A stretch of DNA of 64,000 nt from Escherichia coli (lineage in GTDB: Bacteria > Pseudomonadota > Gammaproteobacteria > Enterobacterales > Enterobacteriaceae): the NCBI RefSeq assembly GCF_013122565.1, contig NZ_CP053258.1, one strand, 5' to 3'. Positions 49,701 to 56,593 of the stretch are shown here, in pieces. Position numbers: made by a program. Position 1 is the stretch's first letter, and every line of letters begins with the position of its first letter.

Positions 49701-52700
49701 AGGTAAACCAGCGTGGTATATGTACGATAGCTGCCAGAGCAAACGCAGCGACAGTATCGGTGTTCTCTGCTCTGCGGTCTTCTGGTCACAAAACAATGGC
49801 CTGCAACTGCAAAACCTGACCATCGAAAACACGCTGGGCGATAGCGTAGATGCAGGTAACCATCCGGCGGTGGCACTGCGTACTGATGGTGACCAGGTAC
49901 AGATTAACAACGTTAACATTCTCGGTCGTCAGAACACCTTCTTTGTCACCAACAGCGGTGTGCAGAACCGTCTGGAAACCAACCGTCAGCCGCGTACGCT
50001 GGTGACCAACAGCTACATTGAAGGGGATGTGGATATCGTTTCTGGTCGCGGCGCAGTGGTGTTCGATAACACCGAATTCCGCGTGGTGAACTCACGTACC
50101 CAGCAAGAAGCATATGTGTTTGCACCGGCTACGCTGTCTAACATCTATTACGGTTTCCTCGCCGTAAACAGCCGTTTCAATGCTTTCGGTGATGGTGTGG
50201 CGCAACTGGGCCGCTCGCTGGATGTTGATGCCAATACCAACGGTCAGGTGGTGATCCGTGATAGTGCCATCAACGAAGGTTTTAACACGGCTAAACCGTG
50301 GGCCGATGCGGTGATCTCTAATCGTCCGTTTGCGGGTAATACCGGCAGCGTAGATGATAACGACGAACTACAGCGCAATCTGAATGACACTAACTACAAC
50401 CGCATGTGGGAATACAATAACCGCGGCGTGGGTAGTAAAGTGGTTGCAGAGGCGAAGAAGTAAAAAAGAAAACCCGATAGTCTGAACCATCGGGTTAATG
50501 AAACAGGGCGCTATATTTCATAGCGCCTTTTTTTACATCTGACGGTTTTTATTGAAGTTAATCAAACTACCCGCCTTGATAATCTCGCGCTCTTCAGCAG
50601 TCAGATTTTCCATATAGAGCGTAATTTCCGTTACCGGCGCATCTTCATGGATCACATAACCTTTAAACGTCGTACCCGGATTATCCAGCGCCGCTTTAAT
50701 GCCAGGGATGTAAATGTAATCCCCCACTTCAAAGGTTGGCACTTCCGCCATCTGCAGAGGTAACATCCCCCAGTTGATGACGTTTGAACGGTAGCGTTTA
50801 GTCGCGTACTCCTCGGCAATATTCGCCAGACCGCCAATCACACGCTGGCAGCTCGCCGCCTGTTCACGCGCAGAACCATCGCCTGGTTTCACCGCATAGA
50901 CCATACTGCCAATTTCAGTTTGCAGCGGATCAATATGCTCCTGACCAGCAATCTGCTTAATGCGCGCAAACACCTCTGTCAGCTCGCTGACATTCCCCGC
51001 CAGACGCTGATTTTCCAGCTCAGCAGTCGCTTTACTTCTGCCAACATAACCGGGATCGCGGCGTGACAGGGTAAACTCCGCCAGACCAATCGGATTTGAA
51101 CGATAAGAAGAGGTTTCACCGGAAGGAATCAATTCGTCGGTGGTGGTCACTTCGTCGAGGATCTTCGAGCACACTTTGAGGACGATATTGTCAGTCAGCG
51201 CACCTAATTCCGGCCAGTCTTTAATGTTCGGTCCGTAAATCAGCGGTTGCTGAGTTGCCCCTTTCACAAAGCCCTGATAAACACGGTTTTTATACGGCGT
51301 TACATCGAAGGCGTACTCCGGCACGTTGTCCCAGCAATCAAGTTCGCTGGCAGAAGTTAAATAGCCACCGTTTGCCGCAGTCGCAGCGATAGAACGAGCG
51401 TCCATCAACGCCACCGCTGACATCTGCCCATTAGCTGGCTTAGAGCCTTCGCGGTTCGGGAAGTTACGCGTGGTGTGGCGAATACTCAAACCGTTGTTGA
51501 TTGGCGTATCGCCCGCGCCAAAGCATGGGCCGCAGAACGCGGTTCTGATGATTGCGCCTGCGCCAATCAAATCTGCTACCACACCTTTTTTGGCGAGATC
51601 CATAAACACCGGCTGTGATGACGGGTAAACCGCCAGCGAGAAGGTGTCGTTACCACAGGATTGACCGCGCAGCGCATTTGCTGCGGCGATAACGTTTTCA
51701 TAGTTACCGCCAGAACAGCCCGCGATAATCCCCTGCTGCACTTTCAGGCGACCGTTTTCCACTTTGTCCAGCAGCGAGAGTTTGGCTTTACCGTGCGCCA
51801 CGCGCTCGGACTCAATTTCAATCTCACGCAGAATGTCGGTCAGGTTCTGGTTCAGCGTGTCGATTTCATACACGTTGCTCGGGTGGAACGGCAGCGCAAT
51901 CATTGGTTTGATGGCGCTTAAATCAACGCTGATGCAGCCATCGTAGTACGCCATCGGTTGAGGGTTAAGCTGGCAGTAATCCTGGCCGCGACCGTGGAGC
52001 GCCAGCCAGTTATGGACTTCTTCATCGGTTTGCCAGACAGAACTTAAACAGGTCGTTTCAGTGGTCATAACGTCAACGCTGTTACGGAAATCGGTAGAGA
52101 GCTCAGCAACGCCGGGACCTACGAATTCCATCACTTTGTTTTTGACGTAGCCGTTTTTGAACACGGCACCGATGATAGCCAACGCCACATCCTGCGGCCC
52201 CACATACGGCGCTGGTTTTCCGGTCAGATGCACCGCAACAACTCCCGGATAGTCGATATCCCAGGTGTCATTAAGCAGCTGTTTTACCAACTCACCGCCG
52301 CCCTCACCGACTGCCATTGTCCCTAATGCACCGTAACGGGTGTGGCTGTCTGACCCGAGGATCATTTTGCCCCCGCCTGCCATCATCTCACGCATATATT
52401 GATGGATGACCGCAATATGCGGAGGCACAAAAATACCGCCATAACGCTGAGCTGCCGATAAACCAAAAACATGGTCATCACCGTTAATGGTGCCGCCGAC
52501 GGCGCAGAGTGAGTTATGGCAGTTGGTCAGCACATACGGCAGCGGGAAACGTTCCATTCCGGACGCTTTAGCGGTCTGTACAATACCAACAAAGGTAATA
52601 TCGTGAGAGGCTAATGAATCAAACTTAATTTTAAGTTTATCCATATTTCCGGACGTATTATGAGAAGAGAGAATAGACCAGGCAATAGTGCCTTTTTTGG

Positions 52701-55700: not shown

Positions 55701-56593
55701 CGAAAAATAAAAAAGATGGAAGAAGATTTACATATTCAACTTTTTGAGCGTACAACTCGCAAGGTTACATTAACAACAGCGGGGAAAATGTTGCTTCCTG
55801 AGGCGCGGGAATTAATAAAAAAATTTGATGAAACACTTTTTAATATTCGGGAAATGAATCATTACCATCGTGGTATAGTGACATTAGCGTGTATTCCGAC
55901 CGCCGTGTTCTATTTCTTGCCATTGGCGATCGGCAAATTTAATGAGCTATATCCCAATATTAAAGTGCGGATTCTGGAACAAGGCACGAATAATTGCATG
56001 GAATCGGTGCTGTGCAACGAATCTGATTTTGGCATAAACATGAACAACGTCACAAATTTATCTATCGATTTTACTCCCCTGGTCAACGAGCCATTCGTGC
56101 TGGCCTGTCGGCGTGACCATCCTTTAGCCAAAAAGCAGCTAGTGGAATGGCAGGAGTTAGTCGGTTACAAAATGATTGGCGTACGCTCCTCCAGCGGCAA
56201 CCGATTGTTGATTGAACAAAATTTGGCCGACAAACCCTGGAAACTGGACTGGTTTTACGAAGTGCGCCATCTTTCAACGTCATTAGGACTGGTGGAGGCT
56301 GGACTGGGAATTTCGGCACTACCAAGCCTGGCAATGCCTCATGCGCCCTCTTCTTCTATTATTGGTATCCCCCTGGTAGAACCAGTAATTCGCCGCACAT
56401 TGGGTGTGATTCGCCGTAAAGATGCAGTGCTTTCTCCAGCAGCAGAACGCTTTTTTGCGTTACTTATTAATTTGTGGACTGACGATAAGGATAATCTGTG
56501 GACCAAGATCGTTGAACGTCAGAGACAGACATTACAGGTGATGGGAAAATAATCCCGGAGCGGGAGATGCCGCGCCAGGATTATCAACAATTA

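Follow-up and report, generated by a model that had tools for sequence, protein, structure and literature searches.

trans-Aconitate is a tricarboxylate that is abundant in grasses, cereals and other plants. Among the closest described systems for its use is Tar of Bacillus velezensis FZB42 (PMC11495376), an inducible catabolic system in which a LysR-type regulator gene is divergent from an operon encoding a PrpF-family aconitate isomerase and then a transporter, and physiology of this kind is also documented for Acidaminococcus fermentans, which ferments trans-aconitate by way of citrate, oxaloacetate and pyruvate (PMC3035267). A census published in 2024 listed homologs of the Tar isomerase TarA, sharing ~40% identity with it, in Shigella, Escherichia albertii and E. 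fergusonii, with neither gene names nor tests, and E. coli genes are not mentioned in the main text of the Tar paper (PMC11495376). We infer that the homologs in the census are orthologs of YbhH, a protein of E. coli which is itself ~40% identical to TarA. Here we report on the ybhD–ybhH–ybhI–ybhJ locus in a stretch of 64,000 nucleotides from E. coli (RefSeq assembly GCF_013122565.1, contig NZ_CP053258.1; the whole of this stretch is referred to as the window). A preliminary description made from the sequence alone had suggested that these genes take up, isomerise and hydrate an aconitate- or methylcitrate-like acid, and we now propose, with moderate confidence and from comparative sequence evidence, that they form a YbhD-repressed, inducible module for the use of trans-aconitate and possibly of closely related aconitate isomers as well.

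Gene content and conservation of the locus

The list of open reading frames (ORFs) in the window gives exactly the four genes and outer boundaries of the preliminary description, and the RefSeq and K-12 annotations name the same genes, flanked by ybhC and pgl:

50533–52794, minus strand: ybhJ, aconitase family, 753 amino acids (the ORF extends to 52818 with a GTG start)
52852–54285, minus strand: ybhI, DASS-family anion transporter, 477 amino acids
54361–55413, minus strand: ybhH, PrpF-family isomerase, 350 amino acids
55596–56552, plus strand: ybhD, LysR-type transcription regulator, 318 amino acids, divergent from ybhH

The divergent arrangement is as had been described, with ybhD facing away from ybhH–ybhI–ybhJ, and all four family assignments were borne out by Pfam and NCBIfam models. 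PrpF (PF04303) covers the full length of YbhH (residues 1–350, 560 bits), Na_sulph_symp/DASS (PF00939) matches YbhI with 647 bits, YbhJ has an Aconitase match of 296 bits and a weak Aconitase_C match of 28 bits, and YbhD has an N-terminal HTH_1 domain followed by LysR_substrate. The annotated start of ybhJ is the ATG at 52794, with GGAG 8 nt upstream, and not the GTG at 52818. On the minus strand the spacers are short, at 75 bp between ybhH and ybhI and 57 bp between ybhI and ybhJ, which together with a terminator-like hairpin after ybhJ makes a ybhHIJ operon likely.

Of 5426 complete E. coli genomes, 5424 have a match to the block, which covers at least 80% of it in 5315, and the block is no chance juxtaposition of genes. 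Compared with K-12, ybhJ differs by 54 nt and five amino acids, ybhI by 19 nt and one amino acid, and ybhH by 8 nt and no amino acids (81 nt and only six amino acid changes in all), and as nearly all of these differences are synonymous, the three genes appear to be under strong purifying selection.

YbhH groups with assayed aconitate isomerases

YbhH of the window is identical to the protein of PDB entry 6OTV, "putative isomerase YbhH", for which we found no paper in a full-text literature search. Lys59 and Cys93 of YbhH align with Lys66 and Cys100 of LigU, equivalents of which we take to be the catalytic pair of LigU/PrpF proteins. The RefSeq name of YbhH is "4-oxalomesaconate tautomerase", and the protein passes the NCBIfam equivalog NF033377 of that name with 515 bits (cutoff 440) and shares 44–50% of its residues with LigU and GalD. 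NF033377 also gives the aconitate isomerase TbrA 418 bits, however, and the model therefore does not separate oxalomesaconate (OMA) from aconitate isomerase activity. YbhH scores 187 bits on the PrpF equivalog TIGR02334 (cutoff 440.55), and matches the 3-methylitaconate isomerase Mii (PDB 3G7K) with 231 bits.

Two further enzymes, AI-7-1 from Pseudomonas plecoglossicida and AI-16-1 from P. viridiflava, have aconitate isomerase activities of 88–115% of that of TarA (PMC11495376 supplement). To recover the Pseudomonas isomerase, we searched a metagenome collection for the 21 gene-specific bases of the forward primer for AI-16-1, of which only the last three are not shared with the AI-7-1 primer. 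The 29 loci found in this way encode a 359-amino acid protein (MQRIPCVLMRGGTSKG...FRRLAG) with a C-terminus matching the published reverse primers, and it is 60–62% identical to YbhH. A neighbour-joining tree of the PrpF family (300 bootstraps) placed the enteric YbhH proteins with this Pseudomonas isomerase (85% bootstrap), then with a Rhizobium relative (69%) and then with TbrA (85%), and put LigU and GalD in a separate clade without YbhH (100%); a grouping of YbhH with LigU and GalD to the exclusion of TbrA received 3%.

The gene neighbourhoods of these isomerases were also compared. The Rhizobium relative, the closest non-enteric protein found on plasmids (58% identical), is encoded in a bare module consisting of a LysR gene divergent from the isomerase and ABC-transporter genes, in which no OMA pathway genes were found. 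On a Pseudomonas-like metagenome contig (L106, 3860–12610) the AI-7-1-type gene occurs with genes for a LysR regulator, a FAD_binding_2 TcuA-like flavoprotein, and SDF and CitMHS carriers, and no aconitase-family gene was found at this locus. This is a tricarboxylate context. Both the Rhizobium and the Pseudomonas isomerases occur in minimal modules, of which the product must be a central metabolite. (As a side observation, the gene content of the Pseudomonas-like locus suggests that it serves tricarballylate and trans-aconitate together.) By comparison, the Pantoea GalD gene adjoins galB and a CHA aldolase gene, and a Novosphingobium LigU-like gene adjoins ligK, an amidohydrolase gene and ligAB, whereas genes for a GalB/LigJ hydratase, a GalC/LigK aldolase or a ring-cleavage dioxygenase are absent in and beside the E. 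coli, Klebsiella and Edwardsiella modules.

We suggest that YbhH is most likely an aconitate isomerase. It is probably not a 4-oxalomesaconate tautomerase, as it groups with the assayed aconitate isomerases and not with LigU and GalD, and the RefSeq name is probably wrong. It should be noted that NF033377 also names the Rhizobium isomerase, which like YbhH has no pathway genes nearby, and over-annotation by this model is likely to be systematic.

YbhJ retains the catalytic residues of aconitases

YbhJ aligns over its full length with pig mitochondrial aconitase at ~22% identity. We compared it with the pig-enzyme core residues Asp165, His167, His147, Glu262, Arg447, Arg452, Ser642 and Arg644, and found that YbhJ keeps the Fe-S cysteines (Cys360, Cys421 and Cys424), the DSHT motif (Asp149 and His151), His131, Glu246, Arg443, Arg448, Ser641 and Arg643, with the Fe-S cysteines and core catalytic residues invariant across 67 family members; the region equivalent to Arg580 did not align in the profile search against PDB. 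The AlphaFold model of YbhJ (pLDDT 83, pTM 0.84) is a four-domain single chain, and its best full-length PDB match is mitochondrial aconitase (E 3e-47, TM 0.70). YbhJ belongs to its own NCBIfam family, NF008503, which is named only "hydratase", and scores 61 bits on the AcnD model TIGR02333 (cutoff 1420). Since all of the catalytic motifs are invariant, YbhJ is probably a genuine aconitase that would convert cis-aconitate to citrate or isocitrate. We note that "hydratase" entries of 598–648 amino acids, and not 753, occur in many E. coli records, and that alternative starts or truncated ybhJ alleles are possible.

A ybhJ deletion is H2O2-sensitive and has NADPH lowered as in an icd deletion (PMC4054840), and in one published study ybhJ was up-regulated 18-fold when E. 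coli was fed on Chlamydomonas.

Relatives of YbhJ occur in citrate-centred operons

The YbhJ-family alignment was scanned against one genome per species, which produced at least 598 relatives (counted as genome stretches). The best 80 of these are headed by E. albertii, Citrobacter and Edwardsiella, and the rest all come from strict gut or rumen anaerobes with proteins 61–72% identical to YbhJ, including Enterocloster, Blautia, Butyrivibrio, Hungatella, many Collinsella, Megasphaera, A. fermentans, Oribacterium, Ellagibacter and Synergistales. We called and clustered the neighbouring genes and identified them by Pfam and NCBIfam, taking those within three genes of the YbhJ-like gene at 77 non-enteric loci (calls were seeded with the matched gene and cross-taxon support, and minor neighbour calls in the high-GC Collinsella contigs are unreliable).

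Genes for citrate synthase and for an isocitrate dehydrogenase-like protein were each found at ten of the 77 loci, and where the order is YbhJ-like gene, citrate synthase, isocitrate dehydrogenase, the gaps are 0–30 bp. Citrate lyase subunit genes were also found (citD at three, citE at three and citF at four loci), as were PrpF genes at five, MatC/CitMHS carrier genes at six, LysR genes at 12 and, in Collinsella, MerR genes at 16. In Oribacterium, a LysR gene is divergent from PrpF, carrier, YbhJ-like, citD, citE and citF genes, and in A. fermentans a LysR gene is divergent from PrpF, MatC and YbhJ-like genes, with the last encoding a protein 67% identical to YbhJ. The genome paper of this species places gene pairs described as "MatC domain protein / aconitate hydratase domain protein" under the trans-aconitate pathway (PMC3035267).

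These neighbourhoods also bear on the substrate proposed in the preliminary description, of which the aconitate part is favoured by the comparative evidence and the methylcitrate part is not. The adjacent citrate synthase-family gene passes the citrate synthase model (PRK14032, 587 bits, cutoff 426) and does not reach the cutoffs of the models for 2-methylcitrate synthase, and no PrpB/isocitrate lyase-type gene was recognised beside the module or a YbhJ-type gene in any locus examined. A methylcitrate reading of the AcnD/PrpF kind was rejected on the scores of YbhJ and YbhH (61 bits on TIGR02333 and 187 bits on TIGR02334, respectively) and this lack of a PrpB-type neighbour.

In a tree of the YbhJ-type proteins, members found beside citrate synthase and those found beside PrpF are interspersed, and the enteric clade is nested among the anaerobes. 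The enteric clade differs at six of the 349 positions conserved in at least 90% of 51 non-enteric members, and none of the six is in a catalytic motif. We put forward tentatively, as a reading slightly less likely than not, that E. coli has in YbhJ a third true aconitase, that the NF008503 class is the tricarboxylic acid (TCA)-branch aconitase of many gut Lachnospiraceae, Megasphaera and others, and that the gene was acquired by Enterobacterales from gut anaerobes and joined to a proteobacterial aconitate isomerase and a CitT-like carrier.

Several other contexts were seen among the more distant relatives. Those at ~39% identity adjoin Macro and FGGY genes, which is uninformative, and one distant relative is on a contig of 3 kb. 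At three anaerobe loci (L009, 2199–12202; L007, 6280–11680; L097, 270–12059) there are PrpF and Iso_dh genes along with two or three aconitase-family paralogs, and a multi-paralog locus in Ilyobacter also has genes for a citrate lyase-like aldolase, a 2-hydroxyacid dehydrogenase and a 2-hydroxycarboxylate carrier; such loci may be pathways for other tricarboxylates. In Collinsella (e.g. L034, L036 and L040) the YbhJ-type gene usually follows a MerR-family regulator gene, with a DnaJ-like gene just upstream in many cases, and no PrpF, citrate synthase or isocitrate dehydrogenase genes were found near it in those loci (the gene calls here are approximate).

YbhI and the module in other Enterobacterales

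YbhI scores 553 bits on the dass model TIGR00785 and is a paralog of the K-12 citrate:succinate antiporter CitT, with 33% identity over the full length (E 4e-85). We propose that it might be an importer of tricarboxylates (aconitate) or a C4-dicarboxylate antiporter.

In Klebsiella aerogenes and Edwardsiella the block is found again elsewhere on the chromosome, and its presence at different sites in these and E. coli indicates that the module behaves as a portable unit. The K. aerogenes module adjoins citrate fermentation genes, recognised by Pfam content (citA/B two-component system, oadGAB, citS 2HCT carrier and citC; L002, 14016–22286), and has an extra gene for a 420-amino acid DASS-family carrier between ybhI and ybhJ (L002, 8683–9945). 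In Edwardsiella tarda the ybhI homolog is split into two overlapping ORFs of 230 and 260 amino acids (L004, 8483–9915), where no gene is called in the source assembly; it is probably a frameshifted pseudogene, and the ybhH and ybhJ homologs are intact.

Control by YbhD

Full-text literature searches by gene name and b-number found no substrate assigned for ybhH, ybhJ, ybhI or ybhD and one functional study only, which agrees with the preliminary description in that the substrate had been said not to be established (a match for ybhI turned out to be the culture medium "YBHIS", and not the gene). In the functional study, ybhH was strongly up-regulated in a ybhD deletion by RNA-seq, i.e. YbhD represses ybhH, and Nac control is mentioned for the ybh system (PMC9068703). 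The ybhD mutant had a growth phenotype on glycerol plus L-malate and the system was labelled "L-malate utilization related", which is a tentative tie to L-malate with no substrate defined (PMC9068703).

The region between the divergent genes contains a candidate operator:

55414–55595, no strand: divergent control region between ybhH and ybhD, AT-rich, 182 bp
55498–55520, no strand: candidate YbhD operator, perfect dyad ATTAAT-N11-ATTAAT, which includes a T-N11-A LysR-type box

The dyad is the sole match in the window, where 0.21 would be expected by chance at one mismatch or fewer. A block in the spacer is kept in Edwardsiella and in part in Klebsiella, and the first half-site of the dyad is unchanged in both and the second has one and two mismatches, respectively. 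The HTH_1 and LysR_substrate domains of YbhD, the divergent orientation and the T-N11-A dyad in the shared promoter are together what is found for a LysR regulator of a divergent operon, and the dyad is a plausible LysR box for YbhD. The GC content of ybhD and the divergent promoter region (55000–56500) is 0.41–0.42, compared with 0.52–0.55 in the flanks, which fits a foreign origin and possibly silencing by nucleoid proteins.

A proposed pathway and the evidence that weighs against it

The sequence of uptake, isomerisation and hydration of an aconitate-like tricarboxylate that had been envisaged in the preliminary description is favoured by the grouping of YbhH, the operon contexts of YbhJ relatives and the paralogy of YbhI and CitT. 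In the pathway we propose, YbhD would bind the ATTAAT-N11-ATTAAT dyad and keep ybhHIJ off until an effector, presumably trans-aconitate, is present. YbhI, as a CitT-like DASS carrier, would then import the tricarboxylate, probably in exchange for a C4-dicarboxylate, and YbhH would turn trans-aconitate into cis-aconitate by a 1,3-allylic proton shift using Lys59 and Cys93 as the acid-base pair. YbhJ, as a [4Fe-4S] aconitase of the gut anaerobe type, would hydrate cis-aconitate to citrate or isocitrate, and the product would enter the TCA cycle or, without oxygen, be passed to citrate lyase. The published repression of ybhH by YbhD and the drop in NADPH in the ybhJ deletion fit this model.

A number of observations weigh against it. 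The Pseudomonas protein is tied to AI-7-1 and AI-16-1 by primer matches at both ends and not by accession. Blank et al. are reported to have found in 2002 that inactivation of ybhJ left the residual aconitase of an acnAB strain unchanged, and acnAB mutants reportedly need glutamate. A later paper, with reference to Blank, Green and Guest 2002, calls YbhJ a "catalytically inactive paralog" of aconitase (PMC4054840). YbhJ thus supplies no aconitase in laboratory cultures, which repression by YbhD could explain, or YbhJ could be no aconitase. In the HMMER alignment YbhJ also departs from mitochondrial aconitase at four positions (Gln72 to His, Asp100 to Cys, Asn258 to Val and Ser643 to Ala). These four residues are invariant family-wide, including in members found beside citrate synthase, and as this holds for all groups, YbhJ has the same active site as proteins that are marked as aconitases by their operon partners.

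There is also no evident need for a dedicated aconitase, as AcnA and AcnB could process the cis-aconitate produced by YbhH. trans-Aconitate inhibits aconitases, and a need for YbhJ could arise, for example, if it is tolerant of this acid or co-expressed. E. coli engineered to make trans-aconitate accumulates it outside the cells, and the native module must therefore at least be silent under those conditions. The sole published functional hint is the L-malate growth phenotype of the ybhD mutant, which would fit a dicarboxylate counter-substrate of YbhI. Finally, the PrpF proteins found next to YbhJ-like proteins in Firmicutes share only ~40% identity with YbhH and fall on a different branch, so that the pairing of the two is analogous and was not inherited together. 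The MatC-type carrier of the Firmicutes is likewise unrelated to the enteric carriers, including the extra Klebsiella transporter. Transfer of a whole cassette from Firmicutes was rejected, since the Klebsiella transporter is not homologous to the MatC-type carrier and the PrpF proteins of the Firmicutes are not orthologs of YbhH. The shared four-part logic has thus been put together at least twice, out of components that are not orthologous, which argues for a functional coupling of isomerase, carrier and aconitase.

Alternative explanations

Pairs of a PrpF-fold isomerase and an aconitase-family enzyme have precedents in Mii with DmdAB and AcnD with PrpF. The module might accordingly handle another aconitate-like acid (2-methylaconitate, homoaconitate or itaconate/citraconate), with YbhH shifting the double bond and YbhJ hydrating the product, and a dedicated hydratase would be more sensible if AcnA and AcnB could not take that product. 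The match of YbhH to Mii, the replacement of several substrate-contact positions of mitochondrial aconitase in YbhJ, and the hint of several substrates from the distant loci with two or three YbhJ-like paralogs plus PrpF and Iso_dh could all be read in this way. We nevertheless think it unlikely, as the active-site residues are identical in the YbhJ-type proteins of citrate synthase/isocitrate dehydrogenase operons, YbhH is nearest to assayed aconitate isomerases, and the neighbouring citrate synthase-family gene scores as a citrate synthase; furthermore, the loci examined had no recognisable PrpB/isocitrate lyase-type, CoA-transferase or CoA-lyase gene next to the module, and the AcnD and PrpF equivalog scores are far under their cutoffs. 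If RefSeq were right and YbhH an OMA tautomerase, the acid taken up and hydrated by the module could be OMA, or a related compound that other gut microbes release on cleaving the ring of gallate or protocatechuate, and YbhJ would stand in for GalB/LigJ. OMA and its isomer are oxalyl analogs of aconitate for which we infer that aconitase-like hydration is chemically conceivable, and YbhH does pass NF033377 (515 bits against a cutoff of 440) and share 44–50% identity with LigU and GalD. Yet TbrA at 418 bits shows the model to be non-specific, the tree gives the required grouping without TbrA a bootstrap of 3%, the modules of E. coli, Klebsiella and Edwardsiella lack the pathway genes that true GalD and LigU genes have beside them, and the contexts of YbhJ relatives are citrate-centred, all of which makes this explanation highly improbable.

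It is also conceivable that the flow is reversed or internal, with trans-aconitate made from citrate and exported, as by TbrA and TbrB in Bacillus thuringiensis, or with spontaneously formed, aconitase-inhibiting trans-aconitate being salvaged, and YbhI acting as an exporter or exchanger. Aconitate isomerases are reversible, TbrA and the adjoining DMT exporter form a production system, YbhI is homologous to CitT, and DASS carriers of the CitT type are exchangers; the H2O2-sensitive, low-NADPH ybhJ mutant would also fit a back-up aconitase under stress. The architecture of the locus, with a LysR-controlled, divergent and repressed operon and an importer-like carrier, matches catabolic Tar-type systems instead, the homologous anaerobe modules continue into citrate lyase, and A. 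fermentans consumes trans-aconitate, and we consider reversed flow to be decidedly unlikely. Least probable of all, in our estimation, is that the locus is a silent relic, having no substrate-specific function today and with YbhJ lacking a catalytic role or only moonlighting in stress. The description of YbhJ as catalytically inactive (PMC4054840, citing Blank et al. 2002), repression of the operon in laboratory media (PMC9068703), the AT-rich and foreign-looking regulatory region, and the apparent frameshift in ybhI of E. tarda could be taken as signs of decay. They are countered by the near-universal presence of the block in complete E. coli genomes (5424 of 5426), the 81 nt as against six amino acid changes from K-12 over ybhH, ybhI and ybhJ, the retention of all Fe-S ligands and catalytic residues in YbhJ, and the 18-fold increase of ybhJ on algal nutrients.

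Transcript elements and strain variation

Further elements were found around and within the putative operon:

50471–50496, minus strand: intrinsic terminator-like hairpin and T-run following the ybhJ stop, where a ybhHIJ transcript is likely to end
50505–50529, plus strand: terminator-like site downstream of ybhC, facing the terminator on the ybhJ side
52810–52833, minus strand: hairpin with a 9-bp stem just upstream of the ybhJ ribosome-binding site, kept in K-12
54300–54322, no strand: inverted repeat with a 10-bp stem in the 75-bp ybhH–ybhI spacer, from the terminator-like scan

Neither of the two inverted repeats inside the operon (52810–52833 and 54300–54322) is followed by a T-run, and they may be RNA-processing or stability elements. 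A three-way alignment showed that in K-12 and E. coli PapM-32-1 the ybhI stop and the ybhJ hairpin are separated by an ERIC/IRU repeat of 125 bp, for which the window has the empty site (52834–52851), making the ybhI–ybhJ spacer 57 bp compared with 182 bp in K-12 (L098, 7322–7503). The K-12 repeat contains what we take to be the ERIC1R and ERIC2 primer sequences. All eight full-length E. coli matches listed are split into two pieces with a longer span in the record, and the insertion is thus apparently common in E. coli.

The best full-length match to the block in the 5426 complete E. coli genomes reaches only 98.8% identity, with K-12 at 96–98%, and the window therefore comes from a lineage which is thinly represented among complete genomes; the YbhH protein is nonetheless identical between the window and K-12. 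The core of the phage lambda attB site (GCTTTTTTATACTAA) lies at 49119–49133 between ybhB and ybhC and is unoccupied in the window, and in PapM-32-1 prophage integrase and excisionase genes directly adjoin ybhC.

Implications

The genes, their families and the census listing of TarA homologs are already known. What appears to be new is that YbhH can be tied to isomerases of assayed activity at ~60% identity, that the NF008503 "hydratase" family can be read as a gut-anaerobe aconitase, and that a variant of the trans-aconitate system with four parts is recognised. Such a specific substrate hypothesis makes four K-12 genes of unassigned function testable by simple experiments. If it is true, two widespread annotations would have to be corrected, namely YbhH as "4-oxalomesaconate tautomerase" and YbhJ as "hydratase" (a family found in at least 598 genome stretches), E. 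coli would have a third aconitase, a question standing since the work on AcnC, and the label "catalytically inactive paralog" would be overturned. E. coli could then ferment or respire dietary trans-aconitate in the gut, where this acid would be a contested nutrient, and the locus would be a case in which components from different phyla were put together into a catabolic module.

Comparison with known systems

The ybh locus shares with Tar the divergent LysR gene and the order of isomerase followed by transporter. The carriers differ, with TarB being an MFS importer and YbhI a DASS protein; Tar has no dedicated aconitase whereas the ybh module has YbhJ; and TarR is an activator, while the RNA-seq data have YbhD acting as a repressor. 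AI-7-1 and AI-16-1 are the closest assay-tied proteins to YbhH, falling in its sister clade and having the same N-terminal IPCV-MRGGTS motif, and their type of locus differs from ybh in having the TcuA-like flavoprotein and the SDF and CitMHS carriers and no aconitase-family gene. The A. fermentans locus has the same four parts as ybh, i.e. a regulator, a PrpF isomerase, a carrier and a YbhJ-type aconitase, in an organism with documented trans-aconitate physiology, but its PrpF is of another subfamily (40% identical to YbhH), its carrier is MatC/CitMHS and not DASS, and the link between genes and pathway is a putative one there too.

LigU from Sphingobium SYK-6 and GalD from Pseudomonas putida, which are (4E)-oxalomesaconate delta-isomerases, are like YbhH in the PrpF fold, the Lys/Cys pair and the match to NF033377. 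They differ in forming a separate clade and in always being found with an OMA hydratase and a CHA aldolase, which the ybh module lacks. In the 2-methylcitrate cycle of Shewanella and Vibrio, AcnD and PrpF are likewise a PrpF-fold isomerase working with an aconitase-family enzyme (PMC5690661), although the order of reactions is reversed compared with ybh, YbhJ is not AcnD-like and YbhH is not a PrpF equivalog. YbhJ resembles the mitochondrial-type aconitases and AcnA/AcnB in its four-domain single-chain fold, Fe-S cysteines, DSHT motif, Ser/Arg pair and equivalents of Arg447 and Arg452, and departs from the mitochondrial type in its low identity (~22%), at the Gln72, Asp100, Asn258 and Ser643 positions, and in having its own family, NF008503. 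Lastly, YbhI and CitT are DASS proteins of the same length with 33% identity, and YbhI, for which a tricarboxylate is only the proposed substrate, is encoded with an isomerase and an aconitase and not, as CitT is, with citrate lyase.

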